A stretch of 56,637 nt of DNA from a virus (taxonomy: Duplodnaviria; Caudoviricetes): positions 1-56,637 of the IMG/VR virus record IMGVR_UViG_3300030376_006415; one strand, given 5' to 3'. This document shows positions 3,707-52,685 of the stretch, one piece after another. The stretch's first letter is position 1. The number at the start of each line of letters is the position of its first letter. Position numbers and translations under genes: made by a program. Below the pieces are notes generated by a model. That model was given only the letters and a program-made list of their open reading frames with translations, ran no database searches and was not told the DNA's origin.

Positions 3707-4642
3707 ATGAATCAAGACTTTTATATAAGTGAGAAAGACTGGAACAAAATCCAGAATTATGCTCAAGCAGCTTATGATGATAGTAAATCTGAGATAGGTG
3801 GTATGTTAGTAGCTATTGAAGATGAGGATGGTGACTGGGAATTAAAAGATCCAGTTATCTTAAAGCAACAAATAAGTGCAGGTAATTGTGTGTTAGATAA
3901 AGATGATCTAGCGCTATATTATACTAAAGTGGGAACTAAACTCAAAAAGAAAAACTTTCGCTTTGTATGGTGGCATAGTCATCACACAATGAAGGCTTTT
4001 TGGTCGGGTACAGACTTAACTGCTATTAAAGAATATTCAGATGGTGACTTTAGCTTTGCTTTAGTTGTAAATCTTGATGAAGAATATAAGTTAAGAGTGT
4101 CTGTATGGAAGCCATTTGAGGTACATGAAGATGTAGATCTTAGCATTATAACTAAGGAAAAGAAAGTTCCTCAAAGAATACAAGATGAGGTTGCTGATAA
4201 ATGTTCTCGTATTATCCCTCAATATACTACCTATAATAAAGGGAAATATACTGCGGGAAAGTCGAGTCAGATGACTCTAATAGATACCAAGGATACCAAA
4301 GTTGGTGGTCCAAAGTATAGCCAAGAGTTATCTGGTGATTCTCCTGATTACATCTATGCTTATAATATGGTAGATGAGATGAATAAAAAATACTGTGATG
4401 GTAGGTTGACATATGAGGGATGGATAACTATGGCTAAAGATATTAACCACTTACTAAAGAGTACTTATAATAGTATTTATAGAATAGAGTTAGTAACAGA
4501 GCCTGTATTAGAATCTCAAGTTATGTTAGCAACACCTCATGAGTATATAGCAATTGACCTTACAGATGAAGCACAAGTTGAAGCTGAATGGGATGATTGG
4601 ATAGACTATAAATCTTATAACGCATCATATGGAGTAGACTAA
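3707..4642 (+). CDS. JAB/MPN+ (JAMM) metalloisopeptidase
   Basis: EIGG and WWHSHHTMKAFWSGTD (E..HxH..S..D). Confidence 0.9.
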   Translation: MNQDFYISEKDWNKIQNYAQAAYDDSKSEIGGMLVAIEDEDGDWELKDPVILKQQISAGNCVLDKDDLALYYTKVGTKLKKKNFRFVWWHSHHTMKAFWSGTDLTAIKEYSDGDFSFALVVNLDEEYKLRVSVWKPFEVHEDVDLSIITKEKKVPQRIQDEVADKCSRIIPQYTTYNKGKYTAGKSSQMTLIDTKDTKVGGPKYSQELSGDSPDYIYAYNMVDEMNKKYCDGRLTYEGWITMAKDINHLLKSTYNSIYRIELVTEPVLESQVMLATPHEYIAIDLTDEAQVEAEWDDWIDYKSYNASYGVD

Positions 4643-5301
4643 TGATAAATACAAGATCATCAGAGTTAGTGAATAACTTAGAAGATTTTACTTTTCACAT
4701 ATTGGGTTGCGGGGCTATAGGTAGCTCTGCAGCCTTACAAATAGCTAGAATGGGCGCTGATCAATTCTGTCTATATGATATGGATAAAGTAGAAGAAGTA
4801 AATATAGGTGTATCTCAATATACCTTTAACGATGTAGACAAACCTAAAGTAGAAGCATTGCATAATCATCTAATAGAATTAGGTGTTTTCAAAGTGAATA
4901 CATACAATGAGAGATTCTCAGAGTTTTATCCACAGGGAGAGAATGACATTGCTATACTTGGGTTTGATTCTATGTCGTCAAGATTACAAGCAGTAGAGGC
5001 ATTGTTTGGTATACCAGGAGTAAAGCCATTATACATAATTGATGGCCGTATGGGAGCTGAACACTATCAACAATATGTGTTTGATAAACCTACTGTAAGT
5101 AAATACAAAAAGACCTGGTATTCAGATGAGAGTGGTAGCCCAGAGCCTTGCAATGCAAAGGCAACAAGTTATTGTTCTAATCTATCAGGTAGTATGATAG
5201 CAAATACGGTAAGGAAACTCGTTACAGGACAACCATTTAACAGGTCATTTTCGTTTAATTTCCCGACAATGTTATTGGAAAAAACAGTCATGGTGTCGTA
5301 A
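4642..5301 (+). CDS. ThiF/MoeB/E1-family adenylyltransferase
   Basis: GCGAIGS, DMDKVEEVN..Q, K, GFDS, IDGR; candidate catalytic Cys in PEPCNAK. Confidence 0.92.
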   Translation: MINTRSSELVNNLEDFTFHILGCGAIGSSAALQIARMGADQFCLYDMDKVEEVNIGVSQYTFNDVDKPKVEALHNHLIELGVFKVNTYNERFSEFYPQGENDIAILGFDSMSSRLQAVEALFGIPGVKPLYIIDGRMGAEHYQQYVFDKPTVSKYKKTWYSDESGSPEPCNAKATSYCSNLSGSMIANTVRKLVTGQPFNRSFSFNFPTMLLEKTVMVS

Positions 5302-36420: not shown

Positions 36421-36668
36421 TATACTTCATCCTCTGTCCACTCGCTAGTTGCAAGAGTTGTTAATATCTCATTATGTGAAAATGATGTTATACCCTCAAA
36501 TCCTTCAGGAGTATCACCATCCCACTTTAAAATCGCTTTTGTACCATCTACAGACTTTCTAAGTGTATTAACACTTGTCTGAATGGCTTTTGTTACTAAA
36601 TCTTCTAATTGCTCATCTGTATAATCAGCAAGGGTTATTATTGCCCATTTTCTACTTGAATAACTCAA
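36420..36668 (-). CDS. Hypothetical virion-associated protein
   Basis: ORF in the tail block. Confidence 0.6.
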   Translation of the reverse strand: MSYSSRKWAIITLADYTDEQLEDLVTKAIQTSVNTLRKSVDGTKAILKWDGDTPEGFEGITSFSHNEILTTLATSEWTEDEV

Positions 36669-37786
36669 GGTGTGTCCTCCTCTATGTCTCCTGATACCAT
36701 ATTAGTCATTAAACCTGCATTGCCTTGAACTTCTTGCAATTTTATATCTGATATTGTAAGTGTTCCTGATGTACCCTGCCACCTAAATCCAAAATCATCT
36801 GTAGTAGCGATTCCATAATGAGTATGAGTACCAACAGAAGTATCTAATATAGTACCTGCATTAAACATATTTACCCCAACCCACTTTAATTGGACACCAT
36901 TAGGGTTACTTCCAATAGTCCACTCAGCCTTATATATTTTCCCTATAGTTACCCCTGAAATATTTTGTGCAAGTAAGTTAGTGTATGAACCTGATGTAAA
37001 TGACCAAGAATTAGTACCTGTATCTGACCATCCTGCTCCTAAGCTAAAGTCATCCTCAGCAACTAAATTGCTTCCCAATGTAGCATTTGTTTGGTCTGCA
37101 ATTAATGGGTACTCATCTAAAGTTCCATCTCCCATTCTCCAATAGCCTTGCAAGTTAGAAGAATTATCATAATCGCCTGAATCAGAACTAAGTGATATAG
37201 GTGTACCACTATTGTAAATAGAAGTTATAGCATCTGCATCTAAGGCAGTATTCCAAATAGCAACCTCATCCATATTGCCATTGAAATAATAGACACCATT
37301 TCCTCTTCTCCCAAGCTCAAGATTTACTGTATCATTGTCAATAGTAGTGACGTTATGGTCACCTGATTCAGCTGATAATTCGCCATTAACATAGATAGCA
37401 GACTTTTCGGTTGAAGTGTTGAAGATAGCTACAATATGATTCCAATTTCCATCACATACATTATGACCTGTACTTTTTACCTGCTTGCCACTACCACTAT
37501 TATAAAATGTGAACCAAGCCTTGCCTGTGGTTTTCTCTGTAGCAAGCCAAAAGTTTCTATTAGTGTTGTCATCTTTAGCTACTAAATATTGAATAGCACT
37601 TGTATCTGAAGATTTCATCCACAAACTTATAGAAATTGCTCCTGTTATTTGGGCGGATGAATCATTTCCACAATACAGATAATCATTAGTACCATCAAAG
37701 TTTAGACTTTTATTATTACTAAATAATGAACGAGGTTTCCTCTTTATGGCTTTTTTACTAATCGTTGTACCGAGACCTAATCTCAT
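36665..37786 (-). CDS. LamG/concanavalin-A-like lectin domain virion protein
   Basis: SLNFDGTNDY, ISLWMK, WNHIV, YVNG, FNGNMDEVAIWN. Confidence 0.85.
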   Translation of the reverse strand: MRLGLGTTISKKAIKRKPRSLFSNNKSLNFDGTNDYLYCGNDSSAQITGAISISLWMKSSDTSAIQYLVAKDDNTNRNFWLATEKTTGKAWFTFYNSGSGKQVKSTGHNVCDGNWNHIVAIFNTSTEKSAIYVNGELSAESGDHNVTTIDNDTVNLELGRRGNGVYYFNGNMDEVAIWNTALDADAITSIYNSGTPISLSSDSGDYDNSSNLQGYWRMGDGTLDEYPLIADQTNATLGSNLVAEDDFSLGAGWSDTGTNSWSFTSGSYTNLLAQNISGVTIGKIYKAEWTIGSNPNGVQLKWVGVNMFNAGTILDTSVGTHTHYGIATTDDFGFRWQGTSGTLTISDIKLQEVQGNAGLMTNMVSGDIEEDTP

Positions 37787-37789
37787 TTC

Positions 37790-38110
37790 TTACTCGTCCC
37801 TATGGTAATCTATATCTATAGCAATACTATTAGAGTCTCTTGTCACTATAGTCAAGATGTTTGAATTGCTTGTAAATATAGCTTTAGAAGAAAGCCCTGA
37901 ATCTGCATTACAAGCATCTTTTACTATATCCATAAATGATGACACAGCCATATTTGATGAGGCATTAAGAGCCTTCTCTGAGCCATCAAGAGTAATATAG
38001 AAATAATCATCGGCTAATACATTACTTATTGAAGTAAAGTCTATAGCAGTGCTATGTGTACCATCCCCAAGAGTTGAGGTATTAATTGATATTTCATTAA
38101 CCTTAATCAT
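37790..38110 (-). CDS. Hypothetical structural protein
   Basis: ATGA coupling. Confidence 0.55.
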   Translation of the reverse strand: MIKVNEISINTSTLGDGTHSTAIDFTSISNVLADDYFYITLDGSEKALNASSNMAVSSFMDIVKDACNADSGLSSKAIFTSNSNILTIVTRDSNSIAIDIDYHRDE

Positions 38111-38883
38111 ACTTCAACCCAAAATAATGTCATTAAATGTTCATCATCAGTATTTTGCATAGATTGTGTACTTGAAGAACACGCATGATAAGCAACAACA
38201 AGTTTTGCTCCAGTATCTTGATCGTCTAAAGTAAATTCTGGACTTCGAGTCCATATAACAGCATTGTTTGACACACTGCTAGTTTCAGAGTATATAAAAT
38301 TTTTGCCGCTAGCTTGAGATAAAACAGCATTATTATTTCCATCTGAAAGACTATTTTCTGAGAATATATTATAATCTGATGCTAAATCAAGACCATCTGC
38401 AGCTCCAGTTTTACTGCTTCCTGTAGAACCAAATCTATTAAATCTTCCTGATGTAGTCGTATTAGCTATATTAGTCCAGCTATAACCTGAAATATCCGAA
38501 ATAGTATCATTCCCTACTGTATTTGCACTAGCATATTGCCATGTATTACCTTCTTCTTCCATTCGAAAGTTCTGATCTAATGTAGTACCATTATTTGAGG
38601 CTATTTGAACCGCACCAATACAAACATCATTATTAAATGTAGGGCTAGCTGTAGCCTCAACTGCAATATATATTCTTCCTCTTCCTGCACTAGAAGGCAT
38701 TGGGGTAACATATACACTGAAATTAGTAGTATCATCTGCATTTACTGTAGTAGTAATTAGACTCATATCGCTCATCCAAAGACCAGCGTTAGTAGTCAGT
38801 TTTGATGTAACAGGGACGGAACGTATTTTCTTTCTCTTTTTAAGAGCCTTTTTACTTAGGTTTGCACCTACACCTAGCCTCAT
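38107..38883 (-). CDS. Beta-rich virion protein
   Basis: Shares the MRLGxG..SKKA N-terminus with the LamG protein. Confidence 0.55.
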   Translation of the reverse strand: MRLGVGANLSKKALKKRKKIRSVPVTSKLTTNAGLWMSDMSLITTTVNADDTTNFSVYVTPMPSSAGRGRIYIAVEATASPTFNNDVCIGAVQIASNNGTTLDQNFRMEEEGNTWQYASANTVGNDTISDISGYSWTNIANTTTSGRFNRFGSTGSSKTGAADGLDLASDYNIFSENSLSDGNNNAVLSQASGKNFIYSETSSVSNNAVIWTRSPEFTLDDQDTGAKLVVAYHACSSSTQSMQNTDDEHLMTLFWVEV

Positions 38884-39927: not shown

Positions 39928-40208
39928 TAGTTATTATCCGCATCTGGAACAAGAGGCTTACCTACCATTCTAGGAATGCTTCTATATTCATCTTTAGTGT
40001 TTAAATGGTTCTTGACCCTAACATCTATAATTTTCACCATATCTCTAGGGAGATGATAGTATCTTTGATTTAAGGCTAAATCTATATTCTCTTCATTCAC
40101 ATTAACCTCAGAGATTCTATTTAACTCTTTCAATCCATCTTTTAAATATGCTAATATTAGACCTGTCCTAGTATCTCCAACTCTTTCCATTAATTCCTGA
40201 ACCTTCAT
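39927..40208 (-). CDS. Head-tail adaptor/ring-like protein (N-terminal part)
   Basis: MKVQEL..YLKDGL.EL..YHLPRDMVKI. Confidence 0.45.
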   Translation of the reverse strand: MKVQELMERVGDTRTGLILAYLKDGLKELNRISEVNVNEENIDLALNQRYYHLPRDMVKIIDVRVKNHLNTKDEYRSIPRMVGKPLVPDADNN

Positions 40209-42151
40209 TCAGATCTCCTTTCCTGAGCCTGCTCTCTTTGCTTATCCTGCCTGGACTGCATTTCAGCCTCAGTTCTAAAATAATCATTATATGATCCAGC
40301 TATCCAATCATATCTCTGTATATAGTCTTTCATCCTAGCCTGTATTCTTTGAGTCTTTACTTCAGCAGTAGCTTGATAAGCACTCAAGTATTGCTGTATT
40401 TTAGTCATTTGAGCATTAGCAAGATCTATATCTTCCTGTCTCTGTATCATATCTCCAGCAACCTGAAACCATCTTGTAACATCTAAATTTTGAGAGTCAA
40501 AGTCATAATCAACTGCACTCCAACTATTTACATTAAACTTAGTTAAATCTTGTGTACTTGTTGATTCAGCTTCTGCAAAACTATCATCACCATCATGATC
40601 TATCATAATATTAGGTATAGTATCTACATCTGATACTAATGCTGTAAATGCACTAATTAATACTTGCATAGCTGCATACTTAATAACTAGATGAACCTTA
40701 TCGTCTGGAAAAAACTGTATATCACTATCAGTTCTAACCAAAACTGTTAAATCATTTGCAACAGGGCTATTATTAACATAATATACCTGATATTTATTTC
40801 CAGTAGAATCATCAGTTATCGGGAATATTTTTATATTTCCCATTTCATCAAGTGTATATGCAGGACTATACTTAGATGCATAATATAAACTACTAGCATC
40901 TGTAATCCTTGATTGAAGTCCTATAGGAACAGTTCTGCATTCTCTCCAGTCTCCATTGGTCCCAGACTCTCTTTGAACTGATATTAAATTAGTAGAAGTT
41001 AATTGAGGAGAGAGATTTAATTCTTCTATAGTCACATCATCTATCAAAAATTCATCGCTATCAGATGGACTAGCAATATATATTCTTGCATTTCCATTAT
41101 TAGTAGTAGCTATAATATCAGCTTGATATGTATGAAGATTACCCTCATTATATGCTAATAAACCTGTCCCGCTACCGTTAGTTATATTAGTAGGAATTAC
41201 GGCTGTTCCACCTAGTTCAAATGTAATTGGCCCAGCATCAGCTGCAGCACCGAAACTTCTCATTTTTGCTGTCATTCTATATAAAGATCCAACAGTCCAA
41301 GGAGTACCACCTGTTGGGTATATATTAGTGGCTGGTAATTCTACCCCTTCATAAGTTCCATTTCCTCCAGGATCAACTTTTAAAGAATTACCTGTCCTAT
41401 CAGCATGAGTTGCTGTTATTGGTTTTAAACTAACATTATCTATTAAAACAGTAACATCTGTATTTGTATTAGCTATAATCCCAAGCCTTTCACAATTGGA
41501 ATCATATGTAAATTCTATTTCTTCCCCATAAACCCAGCCACTAGTAACCGCAGTATATCTATTGTAATCTTGAACTGCACCACCATCAGTCATAGTACCA
41601 ATATCAAGCCCTGAACCTGCTCCAGAATAACTAGTAATATTTATATCATATGTTAACCTAAATTGCCCTGAAGATCCATCTAAACCAGAAGCATCTCCTT
41701 CTAGCCATGCTGTCTGTTTATTAGCTCCATCAGCATCTGAATTTAAAGTTAAAACTCCATCAGTTGTTTCATCATAAGAATCCCAAGCATGATATGACCC
41801 AGTACCATTCGTCCAATTGCTCGCTCCTCCAAAGGTTCTGTCATTTGCAGCTGTTATTTTTTCTGTATCAGCAGCATCAGAAGACTCATATACAACCCAA
41901 TTATGAACTTCTTGTGAAAAGTCGCTATTTTGAATATATGTGCCTGCAGCAACCTTCTCTGTCCCAGATATACCAGATTCCCACTTTCTAGTAAAAGCAG
42001 TTCTGTCGCCAGGCCTTAAAGCTAGCCACTTATTAGTAACCTCTAATACTCCATCTACTAAAAACTGATCTAAATCAGTATTTATTGGAGTTGTAGCACC
42101 ACCTAATGTAATACCCGTTAATGCTTTTACTTGTGTTTCGAAATCTGCCAT
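40205..42151 (-). CDS. Tail adaptor-like protein with inserted carbohydrate-binding-like domains
   Basis: Helical ends around NSDF..W..IDNVSL/IDDVTI modules. Confidence 0.5.
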   Translation of the reverse strand: MADFETQVKALTGITLGGATTPINTDLDQFLVDGVLEVTNKWLALRPGDRTAFTRKWESGISGTEKVAAGTYIQNSDFSQEVHNWVVYESSDAADTEKITAANDRTFGGASNWTNGTGSYHAWDSYDETTDGVLTLNSDADGANKQTAWLEGDASGLDGSSGQFRLTYDINITSYSGAGSGLDIGTMTDGGAVQDYNRYTAVTSGWVYGEEIEFTYDSNCERLGIIANTNTDVTVLIDNVSLKPITATHADRTGNSLKVDPGGNGTYEGVELPATNIYPTGGTPWTVGSLYRMTAKMRSFGAAADAGPITFELGGTAVIPTNITNGSGTGLLAYNEGNLHTYQADIIATTNNGNARIYIASPSDSDEFLIDDVTIEELNLSPQLTSTNLISVQRESGTNGDWRECRTVPIGLQSRITDASSLYYASKYSPAYTLDEMGNIKIFPITDDSTGNKYQVYYVNNSPVANDLTVLVRTDSDIQFFPDDKVHLVIKYAAMQVLISAFTALVSDVDTIPNIMIDHDGDDSFAEAESTSTQDLTKFNVNSWSAVDYDFDSQNLDVTRWFQVAGDMIQRQEDIDLANAQMTKIQQYLSAYQATAEVKTQRIQARMKDYIQRYDWIAGSYNDYFRTEAEMQSRQDKQREQAQERRSE

Positions 42152-48434: not shown

Positions 48435-49991
48435 CTAAGCTGTAATCCAATTTCGTGCTTTAGGTTTATGCTTATACCAATCCCCTCGTTTGTTCTTCTT
48501 CATAGACTTGGGTGGATGAGCATATTTACATGCATAAGCTAAAGCGTCTATAGTATCATCATGACCCATTCTTGGGCCAAAAGTAATTATTTCTTGCTGC
48601 AAATCGTACTGATCTTTCTTAAGGTGGACTCCACCAATTGCAAACCTTTGTGCAAGTATTTCTTGAATCCTATCCCTTTTAGACATCCTATTTCCAGGCT
48701 TCTCTGCTGTATATTTAACAGTAAAGTTATTACGTCTCCGCATTTCCGCGTTAATAGCTTGGAAAACCGGTTTTGACATAGTAGTGTCTTCAATACAGAA
48801 TAAACTTGGTTCATATATTTTATTATAGTCGAAGATATAATCGACAATCCCTTTTTTATCTTCACCTGGTATACCAAGTACAGGTAACGAGCGCTTGCGT
48901 AAATAATCAACAACATAGCAATTATTATCGCTATCCACAGCCACAGCCAGTAAAACGCTAAAATCAGAATCCCTACGAGCACTATCTGTAGCAGGATCAA
49001 CACCCACAAATAAATTAACAGGCCTTTCGTCCCCTTCTGCCGTTTTGATATAGCTAACACCCGTGTCTTCATCTTTGTAAAAAGATCCATCCCAATATTT
49101 AATATGATTTCTATTAAAGATAGAATCTTCCTCATTTTGAACCTCCATCATATATTCCTGATAGAACTTTTGAGGTTGACCACTGTCTGAATAAAACTTT
49201 TTCTTTCTCTCCATTTCCTTGTGACCAAACCATCCTGGCCATAAAGGGGTTCCATCTTGCTGTAAAGCCTTGTAAGTTATCACTTTCCAAGAATAATCCT
49301 TGCCTTGTGCTTGAGCCTTGAGATGCCCATTAAGTATATTTGTAGTAAACGCATCGAAGTGCACAGGCGTACCATTAATACGAAGCCTCCCATCGAGAGG
49401 TTCCAAAGCAGGGAAGACCACCGCTGTAACAAGATTTGCGATTTTAGACCTAGACTCAGGCGTAACGGTATTATTTTCGTCCTCAAAATCGTCGAGGATA
49501 ATAAGATCGTATCTTTTATGCAGTTTAGCCCCGCCACGTATACCTGAAAGGTTTGACTTCGAGATAAGTTTGCTGCCATTTTTAAGTTCAATATCATCTT
49601 CTGTCCATTTTCTCCCTTTTAAATCACCGAAATAATAACGTATTTTATCATTATACTCCAAATGATATTTTACATAATCTAAATTTGGCACAGATATCTT
49701 AGAAGACGCAGCAACCCATCCATAAAATAATGGATCTTGTGTAAAAACAAAATCATGCACGATATTGCACTTTGTAAGAACTGTTTTGCCGTGACCACGT
49801 GGTAATATTACTCCTAACTGCCTATGATCTTTATTCATCAAGGCATCTGCTACCTCATAATGGAAGAAAGGAGTTTCACTCCTCATAAAATCATCGGGAA
49901 GAAATAACTTACCAAATGCTATTAAGTCTTTTTCAGCCAAGCGAAGCTGATCTTCCATTTCAGAAACATTATTTAAATTTATATTAGACAT
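48435..49991 (-). CDS. terL: Terminase large subunit
   Basis: PRGHGKT, IILDD, GTP, GVDPA, HDDTID. Confidence 0.93.
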   Translation of the reverse strand: MSNINLNNVSEMEDQLRLAEKDLIAFGKLFLPDDFMRSETPFFHYEVADALMNKDHRQLGVILPRGHGKTVLTKCNIVHDFVFTQDPLFYGWVAASSKISVPNLDYVKYHLEYNDKIRYYFGDLKGRKWTEDDIELKNGSKLISKSNLSGIRGGAKLHKRYDLIILDDFEDENNTVTPESRSKIANLVTAVVFPALEPLDGRLRINGTPVHFDAFTTNILNGHLKAQAQGKDYSWKVITYKALQQDGTPLWPGWFGHKEMERKKKFYSDSGQPQKFYQEYMMEVQNEEDSIFNRNHIKYWDGSFYKDEDTGVSYIKTAEGDERPVNLFVGVDPATDSARRDSDFSVLLAVAVDSDNNCYVVDYLRKRSLPVLGIPGEDKKGIVDYIFDYNKIYEPSLFCIEDTTMSKPVFQAINAEMRRRNNFTVKYTAEKPGNRMSKRDRIQEILAQRFAIGGVHLKKDQYDLQQEIITFGPRMGHDDTIDALAYACKYAHPPKSMKKNKRGDWYKHKPKARNWITA

Positions 49992-50458
49992 TATGGCCTT
50001 TTTAAATATGATTCCCTTTTGCGTTGCGTCTCTGCACCTTCAAGTAACATCTTTCCATTTCTTGCAGAATCCTTCAATGCGCCAGTATTCTGAGCAAATA
50101 AAGTATTCCAAATAGTTGCATTTGGATCATCTGGAACATCTGGCTTATAAGATAATACCAATGCGTTTTTTAAATCAGTCTCTGGCCTATCTATTTTTAA
50201 AAATGCATCATAACTTAAACTGCCAATCTTTGCATTCTTAGTACTTTGCACCTTTTGTCTTTCTAGGAAAAATTTAAATGCATCTAAGTCAGCCTGCCGT
50301 TTTCTTTCACCTGAAAGACGTAGATATGGTATAGGCTCATCAGTTCTGCCTACAGGATCCCAATTTGGCAAATCCTTCTCAATAAACTCATTAATCATGC
50401 TATCCTCTATGCTCTGAGATATAGCTCTTTCTTTCTTAGCATTTTCAATAATACTCAT
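49991..50458 (-). CDS. Hypothetical protein
   Basis: TAATG-coupled ORF. Confidence 0.6.
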   Translation of the reverse strand: MSIIENAKKERAISQSIEDSMINEFIEKDLPNWDPVGRTDEPIPYLRLSGERKRQADLDAFKFFLERQKVQSTKNAKIGSLSYDAFLKIDRPETDLKNALVLSYKPDVPDDPNATIWNTLFAQNTGALKDSARNGKMLLEGAETQRKRESYLKRP

Positions 50459-51195
50459 TAGTCCTCCAATTCGGGCCGTTCTGCCGCCTCTATTTGACCT
50501 GGAGTAAATCCTTGAAATAATGCTCCAGTTACTTGTGTTACCTTGGTACTATTCTTATCCTCAAGGTCCATAATATCAGCCAGTTTAAAAAGGGCTTTAA
50601 GTCTAGTATCATCCTTCTCGGACGAGAGAATCACCTCCTTGATGTTCTTAAGTACAAAAGTTTCATCTAGATTAAGCTCTTCCATAACTGGCTTTAATTC
50701 TTCTTTCATAGCTGTCCTTATTCTCTCTGTTTTAATAAGTTGACCTGCTTTTACCTTAGCATAGCCAGGATTGTTAGTCGGAAATGCTTTTATATATGCA
50801 TCTACAAGAGGAAATCCTTTAGCCAACAATGTAGCAAATACAATCTCATTTTTATTCAAACGCTCTCTATCGAGCAAAATATCATCAGACTTCTTATTGC
50901 CGCCCAATGAATAAATATTAATTCTTCTGGATGTATCCATCTTAGTGGATTCTTTAACAAGAAAGGTCCCAGTGCATGTTCCAATATACTCTACAGCCCT
51001 ATTCTTACCTTTAGGCTTTTGCATTGTACCTCTTCTTAGAACCTGAATAATACATCCATCATCAGCCTTCACCCATTCACCAACCTTGCCTAGCCTCCAG
51101 TCTGACTGAACAATCAAGCCATTAGGCAAGGTATCCTCCTCCTCATAAACTCTATGCTTACATCTATTTACTGTATGGGTCCGCATTATTACCAT
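50458..51195 (-). CDS. Putative terminase small subunit
   Basis: HTH-like F..LLAKG..DAY..AF and RLKALFKL; upstream of TerL. Confidence 0.55.
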   Translation of the reverse strand: MVIMRTHTVNRCKHRVYEEEDTLPNGLIVQSDWRLGKVGEWVKADDGCIIQVLRRGTMQKPKGKNRAVEYIGTCTGTFLVKESTKMDTSRRINIYSLGGNKKSDDILLDRERLNKNEIVFATLLAKGFPLVDAYIKAFPTNNPGYAKVKAGQLIKTERIRTAMKEELKPVMEELNLDETFVLKNIKEVILSSEKDDTRLKALFKLADIMDLEDKNSTKVTQVTGALFQGFTPGQIEAAERPELED

Positions 51196-51508: not shown

Positions 51509-51640
51509 CTATTTCCCCTTTTCTGCTTTAACTTTCGCAACCATCCTCTTTAAGGCTAATCTATAGCCTAATTCGCTTTTGCCTTTATCTTCATTAACCT
51601 TTTTTGTAAGCTTCTTTATTTGGCTTCTCATATCTTTCAT
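51509..51640 (-). CDS. Small basic protein
   Basis: AGGTG RBS, MKDMRSQ start. Confidence 0.5.
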   Translation of the reverse strand: MKDMRSQIKKLTKKVNEDKGKSELGYRLALKRMVAKVKAEKGK

Positions 51641-51641
51641 G

Positions 51642-51824
51642 CTATTCACCTTCTTTGTATTTAGTGGGTTGATAAAAATAATGAACTGTATCGGTTTCCT
51701 CACCTTGCACTTGTGTGCCTTGCGGCATATTTAAATTTTTTGCAGTTTCTTTATTAATAGTATGCTTCTCATCTGCCCGATGAGGTTTACCTGAATATGG
51801 TCATGTATGATAGCCTTTTTTCAT
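51642..51824 (-). CDS. Candidate recoded ORF (60 aa) with in-frame TGA at codon 8, possibly selenocysteine
   Basis: MKKGYHT-TGA-PYSGKPH...KEGE fills the gap exactly; hairpin CTCATC-GGGCA-GATGAG starts 16 nt after the TGA. Confidence 0.45.
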
Positions 51825-52685
51825 CTATTTAGAATTTTGACCTTTTACAACAGCCATTCTGCTTCTATAATATGTTCTTGCAGAATCTGTTAGGTATTCA
51901 CCAGCTAAACTATCTAGTAGGTTAAATGCTGCATTTTTATCTTCAACAAACCTTACTATATTTAAAACGCTTAAATCTTTTGTTGCATTATAAAGAGGTT
52001 TCAATGGCGGGTTATCAATCATCTTATTCCTGTTGACAATATTTAATGCAGCTTCTGATGCAGCATCATCATACCAACCCCCTGTTTCCTTCCCTGTAGG
52101 ATAAGTCAAGCTTTCCTTGGTGTTTAAATTGGCCCTAGCATACCTTCCAGCCACTGGGTTTAATTCATATTCACCTGTATATTCACCTGTACTATCCCTC
52201 TTCTCTTTAGTACCCCAGCCAGTTTTCAGAATATTGTATCTATCTTCAGGATATCTACCTGATTGATCATCTGTAGCAAATTTAGGGGCGATTTTACCAT
52301 CAGCAGGGTCTCCAATCTCTTTTCCTAAAATCTTATCCATAGTAGTTCTATCTTCTACGGCTAAGTCATCAAGATAATGTAATAATTCATGCATTATACT
52401 CTCCCGAACATCTGGATTGTTTATATTAGCATCATCTGCAAGTATTATTTCTTTTGCCTTAGTGTCATATATTGCACGAGCATTAGGATTAGCTCTACGG
52501 ATTTCATAGCTGTCAAAACTTATTTTGGGAGTATTATTCTTATTTTTGAATAGATTCTCAACAAAGTCTGCAACTTCATACTGATTATCACGCATGTTAT
52601 GCATTTTCTCATTCCACATGAACGTGTCTTCACCCCATATATTAATAAGATCTGCTTCAATATTTTGCTGATTAGTTTTACTCAC
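51825..52685 (-). CDS. Zincin-like metallopeptidase domain protein
   Basis: IMHELLHYLD (HExxH). Confidence 0.6.
   Translation of the reverse strand: MSKTNQQNIEADLINIWGEDTFMWNEKMHNMRDNQYEVADFVENLFKNKNNTPKISFDSYEIRRANPNARAIYDTKAKEIILADDANINNPDVRESIMHELLHYLDDLAVEDRTTMDKILGKEIGDPADGKIAPKFATDDQSGRYPEDRYNILKTGWGTKEKRDSTGEYTGEYELNPVAGRYARANLNTKESLTYPTGKETGGWYDDAASEAALNIVNRNKMIDNPPLKPLYNATKDLSVLNIVRFVEDKNAAFNLLDSLAGEYLTDSARTYYRSRMAVVKGQNSK

Follow-up and report, generated by a model that had tools for sequence, protein, structure and literature searches.

How is a phage gene expressed when a stop codon stands at its eighth codon and the frame behind that codon is conserved as protein? This question is raised by a small open reading frame (ORF) on the minus strand of IMGVR_UViG_3300030376_006415, a complete IMG/VR virus record of 56,637 bp (CheckV completeness 100%, GC content ~35%), which we analysed over its whole length and refer to as the window. 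A sequence-only reading of this DNA had proposed that the in-frame UGA of the ORF is decoded as selenocysteine (Sec), with the help of a hairpin resembling a Sec insertion sequence (SECIS), or else acts as a readthrough switch. We find that this one UGA is recoded locally, and we consider it probable that it is translated as Sec via the SelB of the host and that the ORF is a real gene of the late operon. The features on which the argument turns are as follows.

51642-51824, minus strand: small ORF MKKGYHT-U-PYSGKPHRADEKH...KYKEGE, with UGA as codon 8; homologues have the same architecture
51822-51824, minus strand: ATG start of the small ORF, abutting the TAG (51827-51825) of the upstream ORF
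51801-51803, minus strand: in-frame UGA, codon 8, the proposed Sec codon; the next base is C
51768-51784, minus strand: SECIS-like hairpin, with 5' arm CUCAUC (51784-51779), loop GGGCA (51778-51774) and 3' arm GAUGAG (51773-51768)
51762-51809, minus strand: core module H-x-U-P-x-x-G-x-x-H-x-x-x-x-x-H, codons 6-21, from an alignment of 77 ORFs
Module residues, minus strand: H6 (51809-51807), P9 (51800-51798), G12 (51791-51789), H15 (51782-51780) and H21 (51764-51762)

A UGA conserved within a coding frame

The ORF consists of seven sense codons (MKKGYHT), the TGA, 52 open codons and a TAG at 51644-51642. Just as the sequence-only reading had described, its ATG comes straight after the TAG of the preceding gene and its own stop lies 1 nt before the next ATG (51640-51638), so that the ORF fills the gap between its neighbours. 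The stretch is present, whole or in part, in 20 sequencing runs from 12 studies, and contigs from three other studies have identical letters at 51801-51803, differing from the window between 51400 and 52100 only at positions 51813, 51905, 51910 and 51918. Because independent assemblies share the same TGA letters, sequencing error is excluded.

A blastn search of the region against GenBank phages gave no match, the closest cultured phage is distant (at most 26% identity in the terminase large subunit, TerL), and peptide-pattern searches returned no relatives of the small protein or of its 286-aa neighbour. Likewise, tblastn with one family member against 50,697 GenBank phage records produced three chance matches, and the module is absent from these records. 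Relatives were gathered through the terminase small subunit (TerS), which yielded 80 related loci from phages of ~55 kb. All homologues of the candidate that tblastn found in these TerS-anchored loci have a stop at the aligned position, and a motif search of the same relatives plus the window, with the residue left free, returned 21 matches, of which 20 were true (20/20 TGA) and one was a spurious hit on the opposite strand. Extending this to all of IMG/VR with a DNA pattern in which the codon was NNN gave 92 matches. Of these, 87 are family members, again without exception TGA (87/87); the other five (CGA, TAT, CAC, GGG and CGC) are unrelated GC-rich frames that matched by chance. As a control, the same pattern was run against the genomes of 185,579 bacterial and archaeal species: among the matches listed, at least 120 in number, 50 different codons occur, TGA accounts for three, and only chance matches to the module were seen in these cellular genomes. 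The sole module-like cellular match among those listed, in a Bacteroidetes metagenome-assembled genome with a GC of 0.50 (L178:4722-4769), reads HL-TGA-PYGGPVHPVGGKH with a stop a few codons later and is probably also due to chance.

Searched with a profile, 1.84 billion representative proteins gave 23 matches, and the full-length ones carry W at the UGA site. These W-bearing proteins are gene calls made with code 4: P0014, P0019 and P0022 also translate the TGA that naturally ends them as W and continue past it, and P0006 and P0010 are identical to loci (L095 and L027, respectively) whose DNA reads TGA at the site. The public metagenome calls P0002-P0012, P0014, P0019-P0022 and P0024, all with table 4 and W at the internal TGA, amount to a systematic mis-annotation. 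A single protein, P0013, has Cys at the UGA site; it comes from one 1865-nt ENA contig, its codon is known from the protein only, and its IMG/VR relatives all have TGA (14/14). A pattern demanding TGT, TGC or TGG retrieved 55 matches from JGI metagenome contigs and three from IMG/VR, none of them family-like. TGA thus occupies the position aligned with codon 8 in every family member seen at the DNA level, which is what the sequence-only reading had asked of homologues; the outcomes that it had named as damaging did not materialize, as no Trp or Cys codon was found in DNA and the downstream frame is conserved as protein.

Pooling gave a family of 112 sequences (110 distinct), made up of 16 TerS loci, 53 sequences that the free-codon scan supplied, 42 that came from scanning with a fixed TGA and an unconstrained hairpin, and the window; L329, L337 and L359 were left out as GC-rich chance matches. 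On both sides of the UGA, entropy at the third codon position is about twice that at positions 1 and 2 (0.69/0.91/1.38 upstream and 0.66/0.62/1.30 downstream), and downstream of it indels come in multiples of three and replacements are conservative. An in-frame ATG, GTG or TTG lies between the previous stop and the UGA in 82 of the 84 distinct stand-alone ORFs, 50 of which also have a Shine–Dalgarno-like tetramer upstream of the start, and in 29 of the 84 none of these three codons follows the UGA in frame. The position of the UGA varies from codon 4 to codon 25 in the family, and the base after it is C in 112 of 112 members.

UGA is an ordinary stop elsewhere, as had been claimed: TGA terminates the long window ORFs 40205-42151, 38107-38883 and 36665-37786 and also stands at the conserved C terminus of 20 of the 104 complete family ORFs. 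No other TGA-split ORF like the UGA gene was found in the window. Because TGA ends both family ORFs and long window genes, the recoding is local and a genome-wide reassignment of UGA is ruled out; the data require local recoding of one specific UGA.

We also weighed other routes into the downstream frame, and rejected them. An ATGA overlap conserved at the UGA does not fit, since the base preceding the TGA varies, and neither a +1 frameshift of the prfB type nor a translational bypass does, because right after the UGA it is the zero frame that is conserved. Initiation at a GTG Val codon would apply to the 32 of 84 ORFs that have GTG and would leave the upstream conservation unexplained.

A covarying hairpin and the module that it overlaps

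The perfect 6-bp hairpin CTCATC-GGGCA-GATGAG that had been picked out from the sequence is present, with exactly 22 nt separating the UGA from the first base of its loop. In the window alone its folding energy is -9.8 kcal/mol (z = -1.65), a value matched by 13 of 200 shuffles; the hairpin stands far above chance because it is conserved across relatives. When positions 13-42 after the U of the UGA were folded, a hairpin loop lay over G28 in 109 of the 110 distinct sequences, although some of the stem is dictated by the search patterns, a bias for which the synonymous control allows and this count does not. The loop lies 22-24 nt past the UGA in the family and reads GGU (36), GUU (23), AGUU or AGUUG (33), or other sequences. 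In the synonymous control, the mean minimum free energy was -7.0 kcal/mol, compared with -3.8 kcal/mol for 200 synonymous recodings per peptide with phage codon usage; 51% of sequences were at or below the 5th percentile of their own recodings, and a downstream control window had a mean of -3.3 kcal/mol. Codon choice at P-V-G is narrow, with four of 64 combinations (CCA-GTT-GGG (32), CCG-GTG-GGT (21), CCC-GTT-GGG (7) and CCA-GTT-GGA (4)), and the triples form two linked states, each of which builds a stem.

No one hairpin register fitted all of the family, as the register differs between subfamilies. We used a subset of 41 sequences that share the register of the window, picked by a loop base and not by a stem base. 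Within it, a 7-bp stem is 93.4% paired, compared with 36-54% in slid registers; double changes occur at four of the seven pairs (17 cells), and the covariation score was reached by none of 500 shuffles. The stem variants include CUCAUCC/GGAUGAG, CUCAUUC/GAAUGAG, UUCAUCG/CGAUGAA and CUCACCC/GGGUGAG, and in another register CAUCCA/UGGAUG is found alongside CACCCA/UGGGUG. A conserved hairpin among homologues, the second thing for which the sequence-only reading had asked, is thus present and has been kept with compensatory changes.

The constraints for bacterial SECIS (bSECIS) elements, as the legend to Fig. 2 of PMC13188914 gives them, are a loop of 3-9 nt with a G among its first two bases, a stem of at least 4 bp, a location 16-37 nt after the UGA and a minimum free energy of -7.5 kcal/mol or lower. 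We applied these four constraints in our own implementation, not with bSECISearch. The window falls within all of them (loop GGGCA, 6-bp stem, 22 nt of spacing, -8.6 kcal/mol when 55 nt are folded), as do 54 of the 110 family sequences; among control sites at the same loci, 183 of 2688 random TGAs (6.8%) and 119 of 1306 TGAC sites (9.1%) do so. Taken together, these results show that the UGA is conserved, that the sequence codes on both sides of it, that the recoding is local and that the hairpin is conserved and covaries.

The protein that results from reading across the UGA is most conserved around it. In the alignment of 77 stand-alone ORFs, which are 23-61% identical to the window protein, H6, the UGA residue (8), P9, H15 and H21 are invariant, and G12, P16, V17 and a C-terminal Gly reach at least 90% conservation. 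None of 98 small ORFs contains Cys. Stand-alone ORFs have 40-70 codons, most of them ending in KYKEGK. The module also heads proteins of 512-754 aa (L103:4736-6997, L148:3496-5031, L303:1031-3157 and relatives), and in a C-terminal form it ends proteins of ~200-250 aa (L088, L127:1338-1949, L154, L161 and L382), where 13-14 codons follow the UGA, just enough for the hairpin and the last His. The core H-x-U-P-x-x-G-x-x-H-P-V-x-x-x-H is found in all three settings. The fused partners match PHROGs families of unknown function only, plus a weak tape-measure similarity for L148, and some records that carry the module are pieces of much larger phages (lengths of 68.8 and 83.8 kb, with completeness of 36% and 48%).

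An AlphaFold2 (AF2) model made from the alignment is a confident small beta fold (predicted local distance difference test (pLDDT) 81, predicted template modelling score 0.50) with strands at about residues 5-7 and 14-16. Judging from the pattern of conservation, the core of the module may be a His3-Sec metal-binding knuckle, formed by H6, U8, H15 and H21, with P9 and G12 alongside. Compared with a zinc ribbon or knuckle, which has four ligands, two knuckles and a beta-hairpin, the module has four invariant candidate ligands and two AF2 strands. The suggestion that the motif suits a Cys-like residue has gained indirect support only, from the position of the UGA among three invariant His and from the one database protein with Cys.

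Selenocysteine and the alternatives

We favour Sec as the outcome of recoding because the codon is always UGA and lies where the protein is most conserved, with three invariant His around it; because a structure-conserved hairpin stands at a SECIS-like distance, with a loop G followed by G/U; and because, at other places in these genes, UGA is a normal terminator. In the proposed mechanism, a ribosome that starts at the ATG at 51824 would meet the UGA after seven codons. The short hairpin, which begins ~19 nt past the UGA and presents an apical loop with a G at 22-24 nt, would serve as a bacterial-type SECIS and recruit the SelB·GTP·Sec-tRNA(Sec) complex of the host, and Sec would be inserted in competition with release factor 2, which the invariant C after the UGA would disfavour. 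The product would be a Cys-free protein of 40-70 residues with a 16-residue module, whose second half the hairpin encodes. Module and hairpin are portable as a unit and appear in other marine phages at the N terminus of 500-750-aa proteins or as a C-terminal extension of 13-14 residues. We infer Sec as the residue, SelB as the reader of the hairpin and metal binding by the module. The earlier proposal that the UGA is recoded, via Sec or as readthrough, is supported; Sec rather than a near-cognate residue is the probable insertion, and would call for selABCD in the host.

Several observations weigh against Sec. The window hairpin, taken alone, is unremarkable; part of the stem is fixed by the search patterns; a single register over all 112 sequences pairs 60% of cells, with no RNAalifold consensus; and 56 of the 110 sequences fall outside the strict bSECIS constraints, mostly with a 3-bp CCC/GGG top stem and internal loops, a weaker hairpin in the same place. 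Rfam gives only chance-level matches on the region. There is no Pfam family for the small protein, nor for the neighbours searched or the fused partners, and no PHROG family for the small protein; a Foldseek search of the AF2 model against the PDB returned nothing below E = 1. No tRNA gene, tRNA-Sec included, was found across the window, and tRNA-Sec was not found in five other module-bearing viral records. Finally, a DNA-level Cys form was not found in IMG/VR or in JGI metagenome contigs; according to a 2026 review (PMC13188914), nearly all selenoproteins have Cys homologues. The lone Cys protein, P0013, comes from one contig, and its Cys codon is a candidate.

The most serious competitor, although we judge it unlikely, is programmed readthrough of the UGA without selenium. 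Here a near-cognate tRNA (Trp, Cys or Arg) would let a small fraction of ribosomes pass, independently of SelB, and the UGA would be an attenuator or ratio switch for late proteins. The C that follows the UGA in every member provides a leaky context: UGA-C is the weakest termination context in Escherichia coli, and it would favour plain readthrough as well as Sec insertion. That no sense-codon form was found in DNA is in keeping with selection acting on the stop as such, and a lack of Cys forms is not typical of selenoproteins. Half of the hairpins are weak, and the C-terminal forms look like a classical readthrough extension of a 200-250-aa protein. In the coat/A1 pair of phage Qβ, a leaky UGA gives an extended product; no downstream hairpin is needed, Trp is inserted, and the short product is the major one and is functional. 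Qβ A1 resembles the C-terminal form of the module, whereas for most members of the phage family stopping at the UGA would give a peptide only a few residues long. Termination in the stand-alone and N-terminal forms would yield just 3-25 residues, and the UGA would there merely reduce expression, which a weak ribosome-binding site could do. Readthrough also sits poorly with the placement of the codon, as the most conserved residues of the protein flank it (H-x-UGA-P), which suggests that the inserted residue belongs to a functional site, and with a hairpin that has SECIS-like spacing, a loop G and synonymous-site constraint. We know of no hairpin-dependent readthrough signals in bacteria other than SECIS, and we count this against readthrough.

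It is highly improbable that the locus is no recoded gene at all and represents a decayed pseudogene, an error of sequencing, or a leader of seven codons with a conserved element, RNA or DNA and non-coding, behind it close to the packaging genes. The region does lie just upstream of terS, where pac sites and regulatory elements can sit, and a hairpin such as that of the window would by itself call for no other explanation. A pseudogene or an error, however, would not put the same TGA into more than 110 distinct sequences and into independent assemblies, and a non-coding element would account neither for the codon periodicity, multiple-of-three indels and conservative replacements downstream nor for the confident small fold that AF2 draws from the alignment (pLDDT 81). 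The module is also found elsewhere in genomes and as an in-frame part of large ORFs. Least credible of all is that UGA has been reassigned throughout the host or phage genome (by code 4 or 25, or by a suppressor carried on the phage), which would make the codon an ordinary sense codon: public gene calls do give W at the site in several family members, but the same calls run through terminal TGA (P0014, P0019 and P0022), TGA ends 20 of 104 family ORFs as well as long conserved window genes, TerS and TerL are intact under table 11, and the window has no tRNA gene.

The phage, its candidate hosts and the meaning of the family

The late block of the window is long and leftward and holds the terminase genes. 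The neighbours of the UGA gene within the window are as follows.

48435-49991, leftward late block: TerL
50458-51195, leftward late block: TerS
51509-51640, minus strand: downstream neighbour, a 43-aa ORF with its ATG at 51640-51638, 1 nt past the stop of the small ORF
51825-52685, minus strand: upstream neighbour, a 286-aa ORF with a HELLH (HExxH-type) motif, family not recognised

Further small ORFs lie between the 43-aa ORF and TerS, and the UGA gene is thus upstream of the terminase genes. The 286-aa ORF, for which Pfam and PHROG searches gave no match, might be a metallopeptidase-like protein beside the putative metal-binding mini-protein. The rightward early block codes for a JAB-like protein, a ThiF-like protein, an ERF recombinase and a primase-helicase. 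The adjoining genes at 3707-5301 (plus strand) in this block, one JAB-like and of deubiquitinase type (a weak similarity, below the Pfam cut-off) and the other ThiF/E1-like, may be a ubiquitin-like conjugation or deconjugation pair, of the kind discussed in phage-defence interplay. Among the related loci, two TerS copies (L011 and L020) lie ~57 kb apart on one IMG/VR contig of 104,488 bp, which suggests a concatemer or an assembly of two related genomes.

With respect to hosts, a blastn search with one fused-form locus found only a widespread domain common to phages of unrelated hosts and was uninformative, and the phage has no WhiB gene. According to a preprint (10.64898/2026.04.03.716425), selABCD is universal in Actinomarina and absent from Pelagibacter. 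In agreement with it as regards Actinomarina, five Acidimicrobiia genomes of ~1.1 Mb and 31-34% GC (G027, G021, G015, G042 and G037; loci L471-L475) have a selD with one in-frame TGA, in the context SHG[SA]G-U-ACKLS, and a hairpin with a GUU or GUA loop ~33 nt past the TGA. A search for the phage module in 401 Acidimicrobiia genomes found no copy and seven chance matches. Actinomarina-like Acidimicrobiia are a plausible candidate host group, and nothing more. Their selD resembles the phage gene in being marine, in GC content (31-34% versus 35%), in a UGA near the N terminus (~codon 12-22) and in a short hairpin; it differs in that its loop lies ~33 nt past the UGA, not 22-24 nt, and it has no sequence link to the phage. 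It shows that abundant low-GC bacteria of the surface ocean can decode Sec.

The family can be compared with bacterial genes that carry a SECIS within the ORF and depend on SelB, as summarised in PMC13188914 (prototype E. coli fdhF; the bSECIS model of Zhang and Gladyshev). Like them, it has a conserved in-frame UGA and, directly downstream within the coding region, a hairpin with a small loop and an early G followed by G/U, and its spacing of 22-24 nt lies within the published bacterial range of 16-37 nt. Unlike them, it is phage-borne, has no Cys homologues at the DNA level and no Cys partner in the protein, has only a 3-bp top stem in about half of its members, places the UGA very near the start (codon 4-25), and has a functional module of ~16 residues that overlaps its own SECIS. 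The selenoproteins of eukaryotic viruses, such as the glutathione peroxidase homologues of poxviruses, are virus-encoded and use the Sec machinery of the host, as proposed here (they are discussed in PMC6769590 and PMC1802603); they are captured host enzymes with Cys homologues and a eukaryotic SECIS, whereas for the phage family a cellular homologue was not found and the hairpin is of the bacterial in-ORF type.

We found no report of a bacteriophage selenoprotein in a literature search whose coverage leaves out most subscription journals, and the papers on viral selenoproteins that it returned concern eukaryotic viruses only. The words phage, virus and viral are absent from the 2026 review of the prokaryotic selenoproteome (PMC13188914). 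The Global Ocean Sampling (GOS) survey relied on Cys/Sec pairs, and searches of that kind cannot find selenoproteins of a family that has no Cys relatives. Gene callers either miss these UGA genes or mis-translate them with code 4.

The chances stand even, in our estimate, for the broader proposition that marine phages carry a portable, 16-residue 'selenocysteine knuckle' that contains its own SECIS and is deployed as a stand-alone protein or on larger, possibly virion, proteins; this would be the first family of bacteriophage selenoproteins, Sec-only and with late proteins tied to the selenium and SelB of the host. Were the UGA instead a site of readthrough, it would represent a hairpin-associated UGA switch in bacteria, which would likewise be unusual. 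If the UGA does encode Sec, the module would be a very small, self-contained natural cassette of Sec plus SECIS, of interest to selenoprotein engineers, the type of SECIS could serve as a marker of phage host range, and abundant phages of seawater would depend on the selenium and SelB of their hosts.

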